The translations under genes and the position numbers were made by a program. The notes under the pieces were generated by a model that saw only the letters and a program-made list of their open reading frames with translations, made no database searches and was not told where the DNA came from. From a virus (Duplodnaviria; Heunggongvirae; Uroviricota; Caudoviricetes), in the IMG/VR virus record IMGVR_UViG_2703718855_000003, positions 1-42,021 of that record: 42,021 bases of DNA, one strand, 5' to 3'. Each line of letters opens with the position of its first letter. Position 1 is the first letter of the stretch. Positions 15,727 through 38,800 of the stretch are shown in pieces.

Positions 15727-16168
15727 TGTTATCTATCCACGCTATAAAGCTGCCCTTAAACAGGCCGCCATCTATGAATGACGGGCGCCGCTCCCCGGTA
15801 TATTTGTCCTTAAGCCTTGAGTTAACACCCTGTAACGCAGCCTGGGTTGGGACCTGATTTCCGTTGATCGTCATTCCGGCCATTTCTTCGGTTTCAAGAA
15901 ATATATGGAAAATCTTCCCGGTCCCTTCCAGAAAATGCTCGCCAGGTAGCGGAGCCTTATACTTGAAGTGATTGACCAACTGGTACGCCAGTTCAGTACC
16001 TGCCTCCTGGATAATCTCGTCCTTATGCATTTCCCAGAAGTGCGTAAAAATTTCGTATCGCTCCTCGAGGTCACAGGCCACGTCAAACGTGGTTTTTCCC
16101 GGTTCGTCGCCGTAGTCATACGGCTGGTCGATAACCCCAAAACAAAGTTTCATGGCGTGTAACCCCAT
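15713..16168 (-). CDS. Phage structural protein (head completion / connector candidate)
   Basis: 151 aa, overlapping stops/starts with neighbours. Confidence 0.4.
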   Translation of the reverse strand: MGLHAMKLCFGVIDQPYDYGDEPGKTTFDVACDLEERYEIFTHFWEMHKDEIIQEAGTELAYQLVNHFKYKAPLPGEHFLEGTGKIFHIFLETEEMAGMTINGNQVPTQAALQGVNSRLKDKYTGERRPSFIDGGLFKGSFIAWIDNNAES

Positions 16169-30402: not shown

Positions 30403-31164
30403 TCACTTTTCCGATACAACACAGCGGGAAGAATCAGTAATCTGGCGAACAATATCCCGGTGCTTGTTCAACTCCCGCAGCGCGGCGCAGACACGCTCCC
30501 ACTTCTGGACATGGCTTTTCGCCCGACGCAGTTTGCGGTTTGCCAGATGCAGCGATGGCAAAATCAAATCATCCGCCCGCGTTTCGGTAAACGATGGCAA
30601 CGACTGCACAATGTCCGCTACAGTATCTGTTTTAATTTCTTCCTGTGTTGCAGCCTCCTGTACTGGTAACGCAACACCTGCGGGCTGAGGAAAAGCCTTA
30701 CCATCAGTTTCCGCTACCGATGCTGCTTTCGGCTCTGCTGGTAAATTATCGCCCGGTATGCAGTAACGAAATTTACCGCCCTGATTTACGCGAATCAGAC
30801 GACCTTTGCTGATTGCCATTGCCAGCGTTGAAGCCACTTTGCGTGATGTGGTACCAAACAATGTAGCCAGTTCATCCGCCGTTTGTGGTCCGCGTTGTTC
30901 AATCGTCGCGGTTAAATCGCACTCTGAGATTTTCGCTACTGTCGCCGTGCTGGTTTCTTCCGGCTGTTCTTCTGGCGCTGGCTGTTCCTGCTGAACGTTG
31001 TTATCAGCCACACGCCAGGTGTATGCGCTTTTATCAACGAAGCCAGCCTTTTTCAGTTCCCACAGCTCGTTCAGTACTTCTTCACGACTGATATCAAGTC
31101 GCGCAGCCAGCTCTACCGACGTGGCTTTTCCCATCGCTTTCAGTGCGTCAAAAACAGTCTCCAT
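30403..31164 (-). CDS. Tandem winged-helix DNA-binding protein (downstream of replication genes)
   Basis: 253 aa with two HTH-like segments (…[30 protein letters not shown]… and …[31 protein letters not shown]…). Confidence 0.5.
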
Positions 31165-31184
31165 AAATTTCCTCCCGGTAAAAA

Positions 31185-31931
31185 TTACTTTTCAATACCT
31201 GGCTGACCAACATTCGGGCGCCAGCTCTCCCAGTTAAAATTCACCCAGCGCCCGCCGTTCATGGTCATGCGATCCATAATCCGCTCGCCGAGCAATGTTT
31301 TCATGGCCTCATAGTTCAGGTTTGTCAGCATTCCCACGCTACGCATCGACGCTGTCCGTCGATCAATAATCTGGTGCAGTACCACCTGCTCGTTTTTCGT
31401 CTCGCGCTGAATGCCAATTTCATCAAGAACCAGCAGATCCACTTCGCACAGTTCCCGCAAAAATTTTTCGCCTGACTGCCCGTCGTCATAGCTGGCGTGC
31501 AGGGCGCTCATAACATCAGCCACGGTAACCACAATCACTGTCTGACCGTCTTTCAGCAGGCGATTCCCGATAGCTGCCGCTAAGTGATTCTTCCCGGTAC
31601 CAGGTTTTCCGCTGAACGCAAAATTTGTACACCCGGTCATCAGTTCATCGGCGATGGATTTCGCCTGGCTTAACGCGTATCGCTGGCCGTCGTTCTGCAC
31701 CTGGTAATTCGCAAACGAGCATTTACGGTGCAACGGCTGGATGCCTGAGCGATTCAGAATTTTTTCCACCCGCAACTGGCGATTCAGGCGGTTGATCTCC
31801 TCGCTACGTTTCTGGCCTTCAGCAAGTTGCCACTCGCGCCACTCCGCAACCGTTCTGAATGGGGCGGTTACATGTGGTGGGGTCAGTCTGCGGATACGCT
31901 CCAGAACGCCTCCTGTCGCAATATTTTTCAT
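31185..31931 (-). CDS. ydaV: DnaC-like replicative helicase loader (AAA+)
   Basis: 248 aa; ...[21 protein letters not shown]... (Walker A) and ...[12 protein letters not shown]... (Walker B); alignable by eye to E. coli DnaC as recalled. Confidence 0.85.
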
Positions 31932-31937
31932 GGTCTG

Positions 31938-32727
31938 TTACCCCCTGAAGCCTGGCGGGATCGCACTGTCCGGCAACGAGACGGTGTTAACCTGTCGGAG
32001 CAACGTCTCAGGCCGAACACCTTTCGGCGCGAACAGGCCCTGGTATTCATTGGCGATGCTGTGTCGAATCACCTGCTCAGGTGTAAACCCCTGCTGACGG
32101 AATTTTTCCAGTTCCCGTATCGCCCCGTTAGCGCCCTGCTCCGTTCGAATCGGTTTTCGCAATGCCTGTCTGAACCGGACCCACTCATGCCAGAGTGTTT
32201 CCGGCAACCAATCGGGCAGCTCAATAGCCTCCGGCTCGAATTTTTTAGACGCTCGTTTTTGGCGAGGGGGATTTAGGGGGAGATCAGTATTTAGATCTTC
32301 CTCTTCCTCTTCCTCTGGTAGCGCTTTTTGATCCGTTTGTGTAACGCCGGCAGCGTTACCTTTTCGTTTCAGTTCACGTATTTTTGTAACTCGCTCGTTT
32401 GTAACCGCCCGTTTTTTTAGAGCTTTTTCCGTTATGGCGTTCAAAGTTAGGTAGAGAAAGCCCAACGTCATTTTCGACCAGCCATCCAACCTGAATTAAC
32501 GCATCAGCAAAACCAGCCATAAAAGTGATGCGATCTATTGCACTTTTTGTAACGCCGCGAGCGTTACAATCTGCATTACCGTCTATCATTTGTTGATCCG
32601 CCCATGCCCAGAAGCGAATAACCTTCCCTAATGCGGCATCTGGATCAATATTCAGAATCTCAGCAAGCCTGAATATTTCCGGCTTATCCGGCGTAATAAC
32701 CTCGAGCTTTATCCAGTTTGAAGCCAT
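31938..32727 (-). pseudogene. ydaU: Lambda O-like replication initiator, split by a frameshift in an A7 homopolymer (or sequencing error)
   Basis: Track ORFs 32374..32727 and 31938..32489 are the N- and C-terminal halves in frames offset by 1; the break maps to the T7/A7 run at 32412-32418 (removing one A restores ...HNGKSSKKRAVTNERVTKIRELKRKG...). Confidence 0.5.
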
Positions 32728-32760
32728 TTGTTTTCACCTTGTAACGCTCGCAGCGTTACA
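32341..32760. repeat. Four copies of a GTAAC-containing 19-20 bp element (three palindromic TGTAACGC-N5-GCGTTACA, one direct-repeat variant) in and just upstream of the O-like gene
   Basis: GTAACGCCGGCAGCGTTAC (32341-32359), TTGTAACTCGCTCGTTTGTAAC (32385-32406), GTAACGCCGCGAGCGTTAC (32549-32567), GTAACGCTCGCAGCGTTAC (32741-32759). Confidence 0.5.
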
Positions 32761-32804
32761 TTTAACTGATACCGAACAAAACAATCCGGCACGATTAATT
32801 TCAA

Positions 32805-33227
32805 TCAATGCACTACGACAGAATCACCGGGCGACCCACCACCGCTGAAATGTGCTTTCCGGTAAACGGCCTGGACTGCATCATCATGCGCATCAATTGC
32901 CGTACTCAACGCTTCCTGCGCCGCCAGTAATGCACGGCGTTCCAGGGTATCGAAGATGCAGAGTCGGTGACGCAGCTCGCGCGGAAGAATTGCCAGAACC
33001 GCAGGGATCAGTGTCTGAATTTTTTCCCTTTGCGCTTTCGTTTCACCTTTTAACCAACGGTGATAGATGTTCTGCTGATTATTCCAGTCCTTGCCTGGTA
33101 CCAGGGGCAATTCGCCGCCCCCCTGGCGCAGATATTCTTCAGTAATTGCATTGGCTACCCATGCCTGCCCTTTTTCAGCGGCCAGGGCTAACAGCACTGA
33201 TTCGATGTGCTCATGCCTGATTTTCAT
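32805..33227 (-). CDS. ydaT: YdaT-like protein (Rac-type toxic/regulatory protein)
   Basis: 140 aa, same size and position as Rac ydaT (after the Cro-like gene, before the O-like gene); overlaps ydaS-like stop. Confidence 0.6.
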   Translation of the reverse strand: MKIRHEHIESVLLALAAEKGQAWVANAITEEYLRQGGGELPLVPGKDWNNQQNIYHRWLKGETKAQREKIQTLIPAVLAILPRELRHRLCIFDTLERRALLAAQEALSTAIDAHDDAVQAVYRKAHFSGGGSPGDSVVVH

Positions 33228-33486
33228 GAATCAACTCCTGTGCATTTTGTGTGTTAGCCTTACATCCAACAGGTAAACCATCGGTCGGATTCGGGTAGAT
33301 ATCAGGCCGGAGTTCATGAGGTGTAACCTCGAAATTCGTAGCCTCTGCGATACGCAATACCTTTTCAGGGCTTAACTGACTACGTCCAGTAGCAACGAGG
33401 CTAATCATTGATTGCGAACAACCAGCCAGCGCGGCCAAACAAGACTGTCGTACACGATTTTTTTTCAAATATTCATCTAATGTCAT
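33211..33486 (-). CDS. ydaS: Cro-type HTH protein (YdaS-like)
   Basis: ATG at 33486 with AAGGTGA upstream (track ORF starts at TTG 33513); HTH ...QSCLAALAGCSQSMISLVATGRSQLSPEKVLRIAEAT...; divergent from the repressor gene. Confidence 0.65.
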   Translation of the reverse strand: MTLDEYLKKNRVRQSCLAALAGCSQSMISLVATGRSQLSPEKVLRIAEATNFEVTPHELRPDIYPNPTDGLPVGCKANTQNAQELIHENQA

Positions 33487-33590
33487 AAGGGTCACCTTAG
33501 TAATGTTCGCCAAAATATTAACTATACTAATTTAAATGATCAATACTTATATCAGTTTGAGATTATGAGCTGTGTTCATAAGATGGTGGT

Positions 33591-34055
33591 ATGAGAAGAA
33601 AACGCGAAGAAATCGCATCGCCAGAAGCTACGCAGCGTCTACGCGGAATCTGGGATGCAAAAAAAAGAGAGCTCAAATTGACTCAGGAGCTTGCTGCCGA
33701 GCTAATGGGCTTTGAGACGCAATCTACGGTTAGCCACTATCTCAACGGAAAGGCTCCACTTAACACTGATGCGGCATTAAAATTCGCAGTATTGCTAAGA
33801 GTTAAGCCTGAAGACTTGAGGCCTGATTTAGCTGATCTGATGAATTACGTCCGTTCCTCTGGAACTTATGACGAAAGTTTCGAAGGCGAAGGGTGGCGGA
33901 TGGTTAACAAGCAACAAGCTGATTTACTGGATCTTTTTGATATCCTCCCCGAATCAGAAAAAGCAAAACTAATCGAAAGGCTTAAAGGCCAGAATGAACT
34001 CTACAAAGAAGCGTTTGAAAATATGCTGGCAGCTCAGAAACGCATAAAGAAATAG
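33591..34055 (+). CDS. racR: Prophage repressor, RacR-like (XRE HTH, no peptidase domain)
   Basis: 154 aa; HTH ...LTQELAAELMGFETQSTVSHYLNGKAPLN...; divergently arranged with ydaS/ydaT; followed by a terminator. Confidence 0.65.
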   Translation: MRRKREEIASPEATQRLRGIWDAKKRELKLTQELAAELMGFETQSTVSHYLNGKAPLNTDAALKFAVLLRVKPEDLRPDLADLMNYVRSSGTYDESFEGEGWRMVNKQQADLLDLFDILPESEKAKLIERLKGQNELYKEAFENMLAAQKRIKK

Positions 34056-34075
34056 CCCCCACTACCTCGTAACTA

Positions 34076-34100
34076 AACCGCCATCCCTGGCGGTTTTTTT
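34076..34100 (+). terminator. Intrinsic terminator after the repressor gene
   Basis: AAACCGCCATCCCTGGCGGTTTTTTT. Confidence 0.55.
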
Positions 34101-34291
34101 GTCCCCTGCGCCCCCATCGCCTTACTTTTTTATCAAAAAAAACACTAAAATTTTCATTAGGATAGTACATTTTTATCAACAAAATGCATATTTATGTTGA
34201 TCATCAATATGAATATAACTAATATTATTGCAGAAGCAGCACGGCGCTGTAGGTTTTAGTTCCGCCACCCGGCGTTAAGGGGAGAGATAAG

Positions 34292-34426
34292 ATGGTGCAT
34301 TACGAAGTAGTTCAGTATTTGATGGATTGTTGCGGTATCACTTACAACCAGGCTGTGCAGGCTTTACGCAGCAACGACTGGGATCTCTGGCAGGCAGAAG
34401 CCTCTATCCGCAACAACAAAATGTGA
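34292..34426 (+). CDS. ydaG: Small early protein (YdaG-like, 44 aa)
   Basis: GGGGAGAG upstream of ATG; MVHYEVVQYLMDCCGITYNQAVQALRSNDWDLWQAEASIRNNKM; below track cutoff. Confidence 0.55.
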   Translation: MVHYEVVQYLMDCCGITYNQAVQALRSNDWDLWQAEASIRNNKM

Positions 34427-34436
34427 GGTGCGAAAA

Positions 34437-34589
34437 ATGCAAAAAATCGACCTCGGCAATAACGAATCCCTGGGGTGCGGCGTGTTCCCCAACCAGGATG
34501 GAACGTTCACTGCCATGACTTATACCAAAAGCAAGACATTCAAAACTGAAACGGGCGCACGTCGCTGGCTTGCCAGAAATACTTGCTAA
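34437..34589 (+). CDS. ydaF: Small early protein (YdaF-like, 50 aa)
   Basis: GAGGTG upstream; MQKIDLGNNESLGCGVFPNQDGTFTAMTYTKSKTFKTETGARRWLARNTC. Confidence 0.55.
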   Translation: MQKIDLGNNESLGCGVFPNQDGTFTAMTYTKSKTFKTETGARRWLARNTC

Positions 34590-35009
34590 TCCATTATTTG
34601 GATTAATTCAATATTCTCGCTGTAGGGGTATAGCAGAAACCACCAAAGCCCGGAGGTGGTGAAATAAAACCGGGCACAACACGAAGTCGCATTTCCGATA
34701 TCCATAAAGAGTCGGTCTTGTCTGTTAAATTTAAATGGTGGGAGTGCGCCTCCGGTTGTGGATAACAACACTGCTGTGTGTAGTCTTGGCGGCATCAGTT
34801 TTTTCTTGAAGTTCGACTGATGTCCGCCCTTTTTAAAGTGAATTTTGTGATGCGGTGAATGCGGCTAAGCGCACGCGGCACAGTTAAAAGTCATGTTAGT
34901 CCTTATTGGTTTGGGTGGGAAAGCCGACTGTAATTGTTAACTGGTTGCAGTCACCTGGAGGCACTAGGCACCGCATCAACAAAGTTCATTTGTAAAAATG
35001 GAGATAATT

Positions 35010-35231
35010 ATGATTGCACATCACTTCGGAACTGATGAAATACCACGTCAGTGTGTGACTCCTGGTGACTATATTCTTCATGAAGGCCGGACATATATTG
35101 CCTCGGCAAACAATATTAAAAAGCGAAAACTTTATATTCGTAACCTGACTACAAAAACATGCATTACTGACTGCATGATTAAAGTCTTCCTCGGTCGTGA
35201 TGGTTTACCTGTAAAGGCGGAGTCATGGTGA
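35010..35231 (+). CDS. kilR: KilR-like cell-division inhibitor
   Basis: 73 aa [46 protein letters not shown]...; GGAGA upstream; matches Rac KilR as I recall it. Confidence 0.65.
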
Positions 35232-35401
35232 TGACTAAGAAAATAAAATGTGCTTACCACCTTTGCAATAAAGAAATTGAAGAAAGCAAAAGTATTAAAA
35301 GACCACTTCATTTCATGCGTGGAGTTATCCCAACGACGGAAATGAAAAAATATTGTAGTGAAAGTTGTGCCGAAAAAGACCAGATGGCACACGAACTTTA
35401 A
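35231..35401 (+). CDS. ydaE: YdaE-like small Cys-rich protein (56 aa)
   Basis: ATG overlaps kilR stop (TGATG); [56 protein letters not shown]; below track cutoff. Confidence 0.5.
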   Translation: MTKKIKCAYHLCNKEIEESKSIKRPLHFMRGVIPTTEMKKYCSESCAEKDQMAHEL

Positions 35402-35475
35402 TTAACTGACTATTCGAAACTGAATTTATGCCAGCAATGGCAGGGATTCGCTCAACCTTAATTAAGGAGAAAAAC

Positions 35476-35751
35476 ATGATTACCAATTATGAAGCCACTG
35501 TTGTAACTACCGATGACATTGTTCACGAGGTTAATCTGGAAGGAAAGCGTATTGGCTACGTGATTAAAACAGAAAATAAAGAAACCCCATTCACTGTGGT
35601 TGATATCGACGGTCCATCAGGCAACGTAAAAACACTTGATGAAGGTGTCACAAAAATGTGCCTGGTTCACATCGGAAAGAATCTGCCCGCAGAAAAAAAA
35701 GCCGGATTTCTGGCAACTCTGATTGCAATGAAATTAGGCGGTGAAATCTGA
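35476..35751 (+). CDS. racC: RacC-like protein (91 aa)
   Basis: AAGGAG upstream of ATG at 35476; size and position immediately upstream of recE as in Rac. Confidence 0.55.
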   Translation: MITNYEATVVTTDDIVHEVNLEGKRIGYVIKTENKETPFTVVDIDGPSGNVKTLDEGVTKMCLVHIGKNLPAEKKAGFLATLIAMKLGGEI

Positions 35752-35852
35752 AAGAAATAGCCTGCGCCATACGCAGGCTATGAACAGTGTGTATCCGGCA
35801 AGATCATTCACTGAACAAAACGAATTTTAATCTGAGTTGAGGTTAAAAAACA

Positions 35853-38800
35853 ATGAGCACAAAACCACTCTTCCTGTTACGGAAAGCGAAAAAATCATCC
35901 GGTGAACCTGACGTCGTCCTGTGGGCAAGCGACGATTTTGAATCGACCTGTGCCACTCTGGACTACCTGATCGTTAAGTCAGGTAAAAAACTGAGCAGCT
36001 ATTTTAAAGCTGTTGCCACGAATTTTCCTGTCGTTAATGACCTGCCCGCTGAAGGTGAGATCGATTTTACCTGGAGTGAACGCTATCAACTCAGCAAAGA
36101 CTCCATGACATGGGAACTAAAACCGGGAGCAGCACCAGACAACGCTCACTATCAAGGCAATACCAACGTCAACGGCGAAGACATGACTGAGATTGAGGAG
36201 AATATGCTACTCCCAATTTCTGGCCAGGAACTGCCCATTCGTTGGCTTGCTCAACACGGCAGCGAAAAACCGGTAACGCACGTTTCACGCGACGGACTCC
36301 AGGCATTACACATTGCTCGGGCTGAAGAACTACCGGCTGTTACTGCCCTGGCTGTTTCCCACAAAACCAGCCTGCTCGACCCGCTGGAAATTCGCGATCT
36401 CCACAAACTGGTTCGTGACACTGACAAAGTTTTCCCTAATCCTGGTAATTCAAACCTGGGACTGATAACTGCTTTTTTCGAAGCATACCTGAACGCTGAC
36501 TACACCGATCGAGGACTGCTGACAAAAGAGTGGATGAAGGGTAATCGTGTTTCACACATCACTCGCACGGCTTCCGGTGCTAATGCTGGCGGCGGAAACC
36601 TCACCGATCGCGGCGAAGGTTTCGTACACGATCTGACGTCACTGGCGCGCGACGTAGCCACTGGCGTACTGGCCCGTTCAATGGATCTGGACATCTATAA
36701 CCTTCATCCGGCACACGCTAAACGCATTGAGGAAATTATCGCTGAAAATAAACCGCCCTTTTCTGTTTTCCGCGACAAATTCATCACCATGCCTGGCGGG
36801 CTGGATTATTCCCGCGCCATCGTGGTTGCGTCCGTAAAAGAAGCACCAATTGGGATCGAGGTCATCCCCGCGCACGTCACTGAATATCTGAACAAAGTAC
36901 TGACTGAAACCGATCATGCCAACCCTGATCCGGAAATCGTGGATATTGCCTGCGGTCGCTCCTCTGCCCCGATGCCGCAGCGAGTAACAGAAGAAGGAAA
37001 ACAGGATGATGAAGAAAAACCGCAACCATCTGGAACAACGGCAGTTGAACAGGGAGAGGCTGAAACAATGGAACCGGACGCAACTGAACATCATCAGGAC
37101 ACGCAGCCGCTGGATGCTCAGTCACAGGTAAATTCTGTTGATGCGAAATATCAGGAACTGCGGGCAGAACTCCATGAAGCCCGGAAAAACATTCCATCAA
37201 AAAATCCTGTCGATGCCGATAAATTGCTTGCTGCATCACGTGGTGAATTTGTTGACGGAATTAGCGACCCGAACGATCCGAAATGGGTTAAGGGGATCCA
37301 GACTCGCGATTCTGTGTACCAGAACCAGCCAGAAACGGAAAAAACCAGCCCGGATGTGAAACAACCTGAGGCAGTAGTGCAACAGGAACCGGAAATAGTC
37401 TGCAATGCCTGCGGTCAGACTGGCGGAGATAACTGCCCTGACTGTGGGGCGGTGACGGGCGACGCAACATACCAGGAAACATTCGATGAAGAGAATCAGG
37501 TTGAAGCTAAGGAAAAAGATCCGGTGGAAATGGAAGGCGCTGAACATCCGCACAATGAGAATGCTGGCAGCGATCCGCATCGTGATTGCAGTGATGAAAC
37601 TGGTGAAGCGTCAGCTCCTGTAGCAACTGAAATCATGTGGCCGTCATATTTCGAGCCTGGCCGCTATGAAAACCTCCCGAACGAGGTTTATCACTCCGCC
37701 AACGGAATAAGCAGCACGATGCTGAAGGATGCCCGTATCAGCCTGATGTATTACCACGGGCGGCACATTGCCGGAACTATTCCGAACGAGGAAAGTGATG
37801 CACTGCTGCGTGGGCGGATCATTCACAGCTATGTTCTGGAAACGGATAAATTCGCTGATGAATATGCCATTCCGGTACCGGTTCCTGAATATGTGGTTAC
37901 TACTTCTAACGAACTGATCGCCATCATTAAAAAACACAATGCCAGTCTGCCAGCACTGATGACACCAGAGCAGATGAAAGAGTGGATCGAAAGCTACAAC
38001 AGCACTCTTATACAGCCACTGTCTGTAAGTGCTGGGGCCGAAGAAACAGGCATCCTTTACGGTTCGCTTCCGGTGGAATTTCGGCGTATTCCTGAGGGGG
38101 AAAAACATACAGCATCAGCAATGAAAGCCTGTATTAAAGAATACAACGCAAGCCTCCCTCCTCTGTTGAAAACCAGTGGAGCACGGGAGCAGCTTCTGGA
38201 TCAAATTGAAACTGTAGACCCAGAACTGGCAAAAAAAGAACGTGCTAAATCTTTGCCTTACAACATCAGTGGCACAAAAGAGCAATTAACCGAAATCGCA
38301 CGGAAAATTCGCCCGGAACTGGTGACACTGGAGGACTGGCAAAAACGCCAGCAAGAAGAAAACGCCGGGAAAACGTTTATCAGTCCGGATATGTATGAAC
38401 AGGCAAAAAATATTCACGCTGCAATGCAAAACAATACTGATGCAGCAAGGCTACTCAACCACCCGGATCGCAAATCTGAAATCAGCTATTTCGGGTTTGA
38501 TGAAGAAACCGGGCTGGAAATCAGGGTCCGTCCTGATATCGAAATCCGGCTGCCATACGAAAGCATTTGCGCTGACGTGAAGTCAGTCAGCCTCGGTTAT
38601 GTGCGGCAGGAACGACTTAAAGATCGCCTGCACCGTGAAATTATTGAGCGTGATTATCACCTCAGCGCCGCAATGTATTGCGATGTGGCAAACCTGGACA
38701 AATTTTTCTGGATCTTCGTCAACAAAGATGCTGGCTATCACTGGGTGGCTGTCGTGGAAGCCTCGCAGGAACTCCTGGAACTTGGTCGACAGGAATATCG

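Follow-up and report, generated by a model that had tools for sequence, protein, structure and literature searches.

Palindromic repeats in the initiator gene of a Rac-type prophage form a candidate replication origin conserved across a large initiator family

What is the function of the GTAACGC palindromes that lie in and beside the replication gene of a Rac-type prophage, and is the gene that carries them still intact? The replication module was found in the window (the whole stretch of DNA that was analysed, 42,021 nucleotides). The prophage is integrated at ttcA, and the module has the gene order repressor, ydaS-like gene, ydaT, initiator and ydaV, which encodes a DnaC-like loader. The two genes that concern replication directly are:

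31185 to 31931, minus strand: ydaV, a DnaC/IstB-like helicase loader directly downstream of the initiator (from Pfam and the annotation of relatives)
31938 to 32727, minus strand: replication-initiator gene, 262 aa after removal of one A, with a full-length match to PHROG 2509

The name ydaV is the annotation of the same gene in relatives, and its product matches the Pfam models IstB_IS21 (5.4e-20) and Bac_DnaA (1.1e-8). The gene 3' of the initiator encodes a DnaB helicase, a DnaC/IstB loader, a Toprim primase or a lambda-P-like protein in 10 of 10 diverse loci. We infer that the initiator recruits the helicase via a putative partner encoded downstream.

The preliminary description of this DNA had reported three palindromes inside and just upstream of the gene, starting at 32341, 32549 and 32741. 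All three were confirmed, and each 19-bp core (GTAACGC-N5-GCGTTAC) is perfect. The longer 21-mer TGTAACGC-N5-GCGTTACA occurs at 32340–32360 (one mismatch, the last base being C), 32548–32568 and 32740–32760, which is three matches against 0.03 expected; three or more were found in 0 of 100 shuffles. The dyad core can be written as TAACG-N7-CGTTA, and the three dyads start at -32, +160 and +367 relative to the ATG. The sites and the elements around them are:

32740 to 32760, no strand assigned: site 0, the upstream dyad, non-coding, 14–34 nt before the ATG
32573 to 32579, minus strand: extra left half-site GTAATGC, one mismatch, 12 bp before site 1
32548 to 32568, no strand assigned: site 1 dyad, +160 from the ATG, in frame C-N-A-R-G-V-T
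32385 to 32406, no strand assigned: "direct-repeat variant", two TGTAAC hexamers 15 bp apart, judged to be no conserved site
32340 to 32360, no strand assigned: site 2 dyad in the linker between the two domains, at +367 once the frame is corrected, read as G-N-A-A-G-V-T in frame
32318 to 32324, minus strand: orphan right half-site GCGCTAC, one mismatch, encoding A-L-P of the linker
32297 to 32316, minus strand: uninterrupted 20-nt purine run, (GAGGAA)3, encoding EEEEEE, a candidate DNA-unwinding element and mosaic joint

Site 0 is placed between the ydaT stop codon and the Shine-Dalgarno sequence that precedes the initiator ATG, while site 1 maps in a structure model to a low-confidence loop between N-domain helices 2 and 3. 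The extra half-site before site 1 arises from a 4-aa insertion common to the enterobacterial members, and the half-site pattern of four loci (L091–L094) is "148> 160> 172<". Half-sites, listed with at most one mismatch, occur in small clusters with an 11–12 bp phase (locus L091: "367> 379> 391> 403< 426<"). In the window GTAATGC, GTAACGC and GCGTTAC follow each other in 12-bp steps, the principal units being isolated dyads spaced by about 200 bp. The orphan half-site, which reads GCGTTAC in a Shigella locus (L087), is separated from the purine tract only by CC. The direct-repeat variant had also been put forward beside the three palindromes. Its two TGTAAC hexamers are indeed present, one with one and the other with two mismatches as half-sites by our own count from the sequence. 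However, the variant is absent from phage homologues that are 67–70% identical (L002–L005), and the codons T109 and V113 over it show ordinary synonymous variation without third-position bias; it is therefore not counted as a site.

The conservation of the dyads was determined in 59 non-redundant species-level loci from Enterobacterales, Pseudomonas, Burkholderiales, Planctomycetota, Verrucomicrobiota and others. The 7-5-7 dyad was present at site 1 in 43 of the 59 loci, at site 2 (scored from +320 to +425) also in 43, and at both in 37, against a chance background of 0.007–0.013 per scoring window. In the phage homologues at 67–70% identity both in-gene dyads are retained and their spacers differ. 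Site 0 was found in only five loci, and non-coding dyads at -32 to -44 occur in Shigella, Serratia, Pantoea and Winslowiella loci. About a quarter of the family members have no recognisable dyad at one or both places, a point against the origin reading. The conserved layout is two dyads about 190–230 bp apart, then the orphan half-site, then the purine tract. The palindromes are thus present in homologous replication modules, across phyla and at the same positions, and this conservation upholds the earlier proposal that they are candidate initiator-binding or origin sites. The wide spacing, which had been called atypical for iterons, does not make a classical iteron array, but it is conserved and no oddity of this copy.

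The purine run in the window lies at about +410 to +430 from the ATG. Throughout the family a GC dip of 14–18 points with 82–85% purine is found 40–60 nt after the start of site 2. The tract takes the form (AGAGA)n across phyla, and the rare codon AGA accounts for 84 of 97 arginine codons inside it versus 58 of 1064 outside. Taking these features together, we consider it probable that the dyads and the tract constitute an origin of the lambda type, located within the initiator gene and organised around an initiator domain that is not related to the lambda one; both the binding and the origin activity are inferred here from sequence comparison.

An unlikely but not negligible alternative is that the dyads serve solely as operators for autoregulation or as roadblocks to transcription, used by the initiator or another phage regulator, and that the origin lies elsewhere. 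It is common for an initiator to use the same sites to repress its own gene, and one dyad does lie just upstream of the ATG in Rac-type, some Serratia and some Pantoea loci. However, the conserved dyads are the in-gene pair and not the upstream one, which is limited to the five loci mentioned above. Site 2 is always coupled to the orphan half-site and the A+T purine tract, neither of which an operator needs, and a promoter scan gave no sigma-70-like site near 32740–32800. The regulator genes beside the initiator also vary from locus to locus, and YdaT orthologues bind other sequences: one target is TTGATT-N6-AATCAA (PMC9986795), and binding to no palindrome was described for a YdaT orthologue elsewhere (PMC11879457). 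Matches like TTGATT-N6-AATCAA number 8 in the window against 4.2 expected, which is the chance level. YdaT itself was considered as the dyad-binding protein and rejected, because its published targets differ and distant loci keep the dyads without having ydaT.

The origin reading was then set against the structure of the K-12 Rac prophage, which has the same prophage type, ttcA site and gene order as the window. K-12 Rac aligns to the window only at 31100–32299 and 32807–33233, which leaves one replaced segment:

32300 to 32806, minus strand: specificity cassette, comprising the N-domain coding region and all three dyads, replaced in K-12 Rac

The flanking ydaT, C-terminal-domain region and ydaV are 91–93% identical to K-12 Rac at the DNA level. 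The C-terminal 120 aa or so of the initiator are about 90% identical to K-12 YdaU (64% overall, over 179 aa). In contrast, the N-domain of K-12 YdaU is DUF1376 (PF07120, 2.7e-26), which the window protein does not have, and hhalign of the window N-domain profile against K-12 YdaU gave a probability of 0.2%, that is, no relation. K-12 ydaU also carries five copies of TTGAACATCTG in place of the GTAACGC dyads. With its unrelated N-domain and other repeats, it therefore represents an alternative specificity cassette, and the name oriJ was given to this K-12 Rac type and not to the GTAACGC-dyad type. K-12 Rac was described as replication-defective after excision (PMC11014345), so modules of such type can be silent. 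The alignment shows that the dyads and the N-domain have evidently been inherited as one cassette, a co-inheritance that is partly trivial because the dyads lie inside the N-domain coding region.

The position of the joint leads to another explanation, namely that the dyad and the purine tract serve mainly as a recombination "linker" for N-domain exchange rather than as a functional origin. Homology with both K-12 Rac and the phages L002–L005 breaks exactly within the purine tract (32288–32302), and the C-terminal domains encoded downstream are highly variable (DnaT-like, YdaU-like and others). The tract is thus at a recombination joint, and the joint alone could favour its conservation. This explanation nevertheless leaves site 1, 200 bp inside the cassette, unaccounted for, as well as the symmetric co-variation of the arms described below and the conservation in phyla of very different base composition. 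The lambda ori also coincides with a mosaic joint, so origin function is not thereby excluded. As a full account of the repeats, we regard the linker function as very unlikely.

The dyads were shown by codon comparison to be under selection at the DNA level. The site 1 Asn codon was AAC in all 44 genes, whereas two other invariant Asn codons had AAC:AAT ratios of 40:19 and 49:10. The Val codon was GTT in 46 of 54 cases at the dyad versus 10–13 of about 44 elsewhere; the Gly codon at the dyad was GGT in 43 of 57, and the Leu codon of the orphan half-site was TTA in 35 of 39 genes. The synonymous positions of the arms are frozen while the spacer sequence is unconstrained, and site 2 is found in differing reading frames among loci. 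Variants of the arms are symmetric (GTCACGC/GCGTGAC, GTTGCGC/GCGCAAC, CTAACGC/GCGTTAG and GTCCGCA/AGCGGAC), 36 of 37 loci have the same 5-nt core at sites 1 and 2, and the sequence of the orphan half-site changes along with the dyad arms (GCGTGACC, GCGCAACC and GCGGACC). The pairing of the arms was scored in columns picked from the protein alignment alone, since sites pre-selected for pairing would make the result circular. Pairing was found in 88% of the cells, compared with 21–44% when the columns were slid, and the 12 double-sided changes at paired columns were reached in 0 of 500 shuffles.

Such paired changes are also what a hairpin in mRNA or single-stranded DNA would keep, acting in the control of translation or decay or as a priming signal. 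Each dyad can fold into an 8–9 bp stem with a short loop (about -10 kcal/mol), and the only call of a terminator scan was 32341–32359 on the plus strand, i.e. the site 2 dyad. This "terminator" is however antisense to the gene, and no Rfam match was found (Rfam 15, E<=1, positions 31700–33000). The arms are conserved in sequence beyond what pairing requires, with identical variants across sites in nearly all loci as given above. Among 54 mispairs only 3 were G.T and most were G.G or C.C, and the orphan half-sites, which cannot pair, still co-vary with the arms. There is therefore little chance that a hairpin explains the repeats.

The idea that the repeats simply reflect a protein motif, G-N-A-x-x-V-T, which the initiator needs twice, the symmetry of the DNA being incidental, is more improbable still. 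Both in-gene dyads are in the same reading frame in the window, and the motif is near residue 50 in 101 of 142 representatives. However, the synonymous positions would not then be frozen, and the N-to-H replacement in the left arm would not be accompanied by a silent change of GTT to GTG in the right one. Dyads also occur in non-coding DNA or in other frames, where they read V-T-x-x-A-L-P, and the model confidence of the loop that holds site 1 is very low.

An origin within the initiator gene has a precedent in lambda, and the likeness is one of layout only. In lambda the origin occupies the part of the initiator gene that encodes the linker following the N-terminal DNA-binding domain, which is also the place of the candidate origin in the window. 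The dyad-symmetric iterons of lambda ori extend from +348 to +433 and are followed by AAAAGAAAAAAGAAAAGA; in the window site 2 is at +367 and is followed by the purine run described above. In both cases dyad-symmetric sites precede an A+T-rich tract whose coding strand is rich in purines, the N-domain and the sites are exchanged as a specificity cassette, and a helicase-recruiting gene comes immediately downstream. The preliminary description had called the initiator lambda-O-like. This does not hold at the sequence level, since lambda O shows no similarity to it (BLASTP E=1.3; no match to PF04492, Phage_rep_O), and the window protein is an analogue by position and layout. The sites differ as well: lambda has four adjacent 18–19 bp iterons, whereas the window has two or three single dyads 190–210 bp apart with phased half-sites, one of the dyads being within the DNA-binding domain's own coding region. 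The lack of a classical iteron array counts against the origin model. Across phyla the dyad sequence has hardly changed, whereas even closely related lambdoid phages have different iterons, and the partner is a DnaC-like loader in the window and P in lambda.

In the origin model, dimers of the initiator N-domain would bind the dyads, and the resulting nucleoprotein complex would destabilise the adjacent purine tract. The loader and the host DnaB helicase would then be recruited by the C-terminal domain. Where it is present, the upstream dyad may also let the initiator throttle its own transcription. More tentatively, with somewhat less than an even chance of being right, the sites may represent a "frozen" origin of a large uncurated family, in which the recognition dyad forms part of the codons for the DNA-binding domain and linker of the very initiator that would bind it, and both the (AGAGA)n unwinding tract and the 7-5-7 dyad were retained from Enterobacteria to Planctomycetes and Verrucomicrobia. 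The protein and its site would constrain each other, so that the dyad and the tract persist almost unchanged, and the few specificity switches (GTCAC, GTTGC and GTCCGC) would have changed all the sites of a locus together.

The initiator has an N-domain of about 105 aa, a basic/acidic linker and a YdaU-type C-terminal domain. The N-domain is tentatively regarded as DNA-binding and winged-helix-like, with a tentative recognition helix at residues 73–80 of the structure model. Residues 1–262 match positions 1–277 of the PHROG 2509 profile, "replication initiation protein" (8.5e-89). No Pfam match was obtained for the half-ORFs, nor for the fused protein even at E<=10, nor any PDB sequence match for the N-domain profile at E<=10. 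The NCBIfam DnaT model scored 16 bits (E=0.0065), below its cut-off of 201, over the last 19 residues only. Relatives such as P0017 carry PF17948, a DnaT-type C-terminal domain. The N-domain family has no Pfam entry and, when clustered at 50% identity, comprises at least 5,900 clusters. Its members occur in the cultured phages epsilon15, CP2, PAN70, Raharianne and phiPSA1 as well as in Rac-type prophages of pathogenic E. coli and Shigella. The N-domain of the window initiator is shared with the PHROG 2509 or "primosomal protein I" phages (epsilon15-like, Xanthomonas CP2-like, Ralstonia and Pseudomonas), many of which have the C-terminal PF17948; both annotations are homology labels only. The epsilon15/phiPSA1 branch uses another dyad, GTCCGCA-N5-AGCGGAC, at +65 and +344/+365. 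Only two records of a plasmid collection contained the N-domain, which gives no evidence of use in plasmid replicons. The literature covered on oriJ/Rac, ydaU, the GTAACGC repeat, the purine tract and the epsilon15 origin or DnaT, which included few subscription papers, neither describes these sites nor reports binding, unwinding or replication results for any family member.

The second question concerns the integrity of the gene in this copy, which is interrupted at one position:

32412 to 32418, minus strand: A7 run on the coding strand (T7 on the plus strand), one base longer than in all relatives

As had been noted, the gene is split at this homopolymer into two overlapping minus-strand ORFs, 32727–32374 (117 aa) and 32489–31938 (183 aa), and deletion of one A restores a single continuous ORF of 262 aa. 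The frame is lost after codon 105, which leaves the N-domain with a 12-aa out-of-frame tail. An intact counterpart with matching layout exists in E. coli RM11911 (WP_010358686.1, a 789-nt CDS), and T6 versus T7 is its sole difference from the window in the initiator gene. The 81-nt context around the run had no exact match in 5,426 complete E. coli genomes, whereas 125 match with a 1-nt gap. Among 82 close relatives the run was A6 in 75, A9 in 2 and in-frame TCA-AAA-AAA in 4, and it was unreadable in 1; an out-of-frame run was found in none of the 5,426 genomes or the 82 relatives. The comparison with intact homologues that had been suggested thus found every run in frame, and the frameshift, in the genomes compared, is private to this copy. 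It is therefore either a recent inactivation or a homopolymer error, the same choice that had been offered before. Sequence alone cannot separate the two, and we lean only slightly towards a real mutation. If A7 is real, the prophage would be unable to start its own replication while a putative origin-binding fragment would still be made. Programmed frameshifting or transcriptional slippage at A7, giving a short and a long product, is extremely unlikely: homopolymeric A runs can slip and the run varies naturally between A6 and A9 (two relatives), but no other genome in either set is out of frame, distant homologues have no A run at the corresponding place, and by our own reading of the codons the second frame is reachable only by a +1 shift. 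The class of programmed-frameshift genes was likewise rejected, as it requires a conserved out-of-frame arrangement and all relatives are in frame.

By itself the frameshift, whether a lesion or an error at a homopolymer, is nothing unusual for a decaying prophage. The palindromes, in contrast, point to the probable origin used by a widespread family of initiators with no Pfam model, solved relative or described binding site. They offer a cheap and concrete hypothesis, in which an N-domain dimer would bind TAACG-N7-CGTTA and melting would start from the (AGAGA)n tract, and they would allow motif-based annotation of origins in many prophages. The protein stretches N-A-x-x-V-T, A-L-P and EEEE/REEKRRE are a clean case from nature in which selection on the DNA has shaped the protein sequence. 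If the frozen-origin reading is true, the family would further provide a sequence rule to predict replication origins in thousands of uncultured phages.

The prophage is Rac-type and lies at the Rac attachment site. The features around its initiator gene are as follows.

Initiator gene, dyads and neighbouring genes in the window
Farther out from the initiator gene: kilR, ydaE, recE, recT, ralR, xisR, intR and ttcA
Upstream of the initiator gene: ydaT, a ydaS/cro-like HTH gene and a divergent HTH repressor
32740-32760: dyad site 0, -32 relative to the ATG, non-coding
32727-32374, minus strand: ORF of 117 aa
32548-32568: dyad site 1, +160 relative to the ATG
32489-31938, minus strand: ORF of 183 aa
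32412-32418: T7 run on the plus strand (A7 on the coding strand), the overlap point of both ORFs
32340-32360: dyad site 2, +367 relative to the ATG
32318-32324: orphan half-site GCGCTAC, one mismatch
32297-32316: purine tract (GAGGAA)3
31931-31185: ydaV, DnaC/IstB-like ATPase, downstream of the initiator gene

Elsewhere in the window are the structural and lysis genes of the prophage (terminase, baseplate, tail fibre, holins). RefSeq annotates the near-identical prophage of RM11911 (L160) with two genes inserted among the baseplate genes, one of the anti-CBASS Acb1 family and one for a 'type I restriction endonuclease', and with three tRNA genes (Ile/Arg/Gly) adjoining the lysis cassette; by homology, all fall within window 1-27000.

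Three copies of the motif TGTAACGC-N5-GCGTTACA are present, starting at 32340, 32548 and 32740, versus 0.03 expected, which bears out the preliminary description of three palindromes in and just upstream of the gene. Phages 67-70% identical in this segment (Klebsiella ST11-OXA245phi3.2, Enterobacter BUCT554, vB_EcoP_ZX5 and TL-2011b) keep both in-gene dyads with identical arms and different spacers. For a wider comparison, 71 loci, one per species, were retrieved by a profile of the N-terminal 141 residues (35-97% protein identity); the groups represented include Enterobacterales, Pseudomonadales, Burkholderiales, Planctomycetota and Verrucomicrobiota (Akkermansia among them). Among 59 non-redundant loci, the 7-5-7 dyad was found in the site-1 window of 43, in the site-2 window of 43 and in both of 37, versus 0.007-0.013 hits per window for the same filter in 151 kb of flanking DNA. 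The palindromes are therefore present in homologous replication modules; their absence there was the outcome that the preliminary description had named as counting against its reading. Several loci have extra copies in the non-coding DNA upstream of the gene. A 4-aa insertion, D-G-N-A-x-[CSG]-N-A-x-S-V-T (window 32573-32579, L089-L094), is shared by the enterobacterial members; it contributes a further half-site 12 bp ahead of site 1, so that three lie in helical phase.

Deviant arms are symmetric and uniform across all sites within a locus, and sites 1 and 2 share an identical 5-nt core in 36/37 loci.

Arm variants
GTCACGC/GCGTGAC: loci L132, L141, L148, L149, L151 and L156
GTTGCGC/GCGCAAC: locus L117
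CTAACGC/GCGTTAG: locus L136
GTCCGCA/AGCGGAC, N5 spacer: epsilon15 and phiPSA1, at +65 and +344/+365

The last variant belongs to the divergent epsilon15/phiPSA1 branch (Salmonella phage epsilon15, L161:1565-1583 and 1844-1873; phiPSA1, L166), in which an extra half-site and AGAGAAGAGAAGAGAAGA again come after the dyad. In the Akkermansia MAGs L108 and L109 every site has the asymmetric form GTAACGC-N5-CCGTTAC, whose innermost pair is a C.C mismatch; thus the innermost base pair need not be symmetric.

Half-site maps showed small clusters phased 11-12 bp and an orphan right half-site after site 2, followed by a purine tract, usually GCGTTAC-C-AGAGAAGAGAAGAGAAGA. The abutting half-site tracks the arm variant of its locus (GCGTGACC, GCGCAACC or GCGGACC). 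Averaged over 41 loci, 20-nt windows centred 40-60 nt past the site-2 start lay 14-18 GC points under the mean of the locus, and their coding strand was 82-85% purine. The Arg codon inside the tract is AGA in 84/97 cases versus 58/1064 in the remainder of these genes. The tract is flanked by GATC (Dam) sites at 32282, 32294 and 32330 (window 32282-32333); nowhere else in the 42 kb do three or more GATC fall within 60 nt, and Dam/SeqA control like that of other enterobacterial origins is a possible explanation.

The N-terminal domain, about 105 aa long, is the sole component common to all loci; upstream regulators and C-terminal domains vary. It has no Pfam model and no sequence relative in the PDB, and its profile showed no similarity to the DUF1376 domain of K-12 YdaU. 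Clustered at 50% identity, the family comprises 5,893 representatives at E<=1e-3 (3,306 at E<=1e-10), and it is present in cultured phages. K-12 Rac matches window 31100-32299 and 32807-33233 at 91-93% identity and has a DUF1376 N-domain in place of 32300-32806, with the joint within the purine tract. The replacement gene carries five copies of TTGAACATCTG instead of the dyads; these copies are candidate iterons of oriJ, the classical Rac origin. In the Rac ydaU of E. coli C600/K-12 (L158:2953-3253), the five TTGAACATCTG(C/T) are accompanied by short palindromes ATGTTCAAACA/TGTTTGAACAT where the window has dyads. The gene after the initiator in ten diverse loci encodes a DnaB helicase, a DnaC/IstB loader, a Toprim primase or a lambda-P-like protein.

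These comparisons show DNA-level selection on the sites, their concordance within a locus, the coupled purine tract, the inheritance of the dyads as a cassette with the N-domain and the context of replication genes. The reading best supported by the sequences is that an unrelated initiator family carries a lambda-style origin inside its initiator gene. Two rivals to this putative origin are that the dyads are operators only, and that the dyad and tract sequence is a recombination linker.

The repeats could also represent a protein motif, since the arms in frame encode x-N-A-x-x-V-T. The codons argue against it. The site-1 Asn codon is AAC in 44/44 genes, versus AAC:AAT ratios of 40:19 and 49:10 at other invariant Asn positions; the site-1 Val codon is GTT in 46/54, versus 10-13 of about 44 for Val at other conserved positions; the preceding Gly is GGT in 43/57. 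Site 2 at some loci lies in another frame, read V-T-x-x-A-L-P, which explains the Leu codon TTA in 35/39 genes. Judged from these frozen synonymous codons, the second reading frame and the non-coding copies, selection at the dyads acts on DNA, not protein, and the protein-motif reading is very unlikely.

Pairing of the arms would also fit an mRNA hairpin. With site-1 columns picked solely from the protein alignment, 88% of cells paired versus 21-44% for slid partners, and double-sided changes in 12 cells were reached in 0/500 shuffles; in the GTCAC loci, an N to H replacement in the left arm is paired with a silent GTT-to-GTG change in the right arm. However, mispairs lie at the innermost and outermost positions and are mostly G.G or C.C (G.T only 3/54), and an Rfam search of the region gave no match. 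The mispair pattern and the concordant arms rule against a hairpin and indicate a symmetric double-stranded site with the core TAACG-N7-CGTTA.

The initiator gene in the window copy is broken by a private one-base expansion. As initially described, the two ORFs meet at the 7-nt homopolymer, and deleting one A fuses them into a 262-aa protein. In RM11911, the closest complete genome, T6 versus T7 is the sole difference over the gene. None of 5,426 complete E. coli genomes contained an exact match to an 81-nt probe spanning the run; 125 matched it with a one-base gap. Among 82 close relatives from IMG/VR and GTDB (one unreadable at the run), A6 was found in 75, A9 in two and in-frame TCA-AAA-AAA in four, and none of the readable loci had an out-of-frame run. 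The run is thus naturally polymorphic yet always in frame in IMG/VR relatives (L064, L068, L015, L016, L018, L086): the A9 form, on two contigs, adds one Lys, and TCA-AAA-AAA has seven A's with length unchanged. Programmed slippage at A7 is countered by this private distribution, since all readable relatives are in frame.

The choice between pseudogene and homopolymer error, posed in the preliminary description, remains the right one. Over the whole 42 kb, the window and RM11911 differ by 10 substitutions and 5 indels, all five being one-base homopolymer differences (the others include 16098, 25873 and 35693-35700). At 16098 and 35700, the annotated frameshift is in RM11911, with intact ORFs in the window, e.g. 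35428-35751. The 100% identity to strain VG48B2 over 25 kb (window 1-25000) speaks for a clean window assembly. Between the two, we lean slightly towards a real lesion. The sister prophage in VG48B2 (L159, 2021585-2021743) retains only 159 nt of the initiator; the deletion, approximately window 31940-35900, runs from the recE N-terminus through the initiator gene and takes the whole immunity region and origin cassette, so the prophage lineage is decaying. A real frameshift would leave a product made of the N-domain followed by 12 out-of-frame residues. In itself, such a frameshift is ordinary.

Origins inside initiator genes are known from lambda and P22. In gene O, the annotated lambda ori sits at the same position and is laid out in the same way, with four dyad-symmetric iterons (+348 to +433) and then ACAAAAGAAAAAAGAAAAGATTATT; unlike that array, the dyads here are dispersed and single. 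No description of the sites of the N-domain family was found in the literature that could be searched. In the proposed mechanism, a dimer of the N-domain would bind the dyads, the purine tract would melt, and the C-terminal domain would recruit YdaV and DnaB. It is unusual that one dyad sits in the coding region of the predicted binding domain itself, and that the site sequence is near-identical across phyla.
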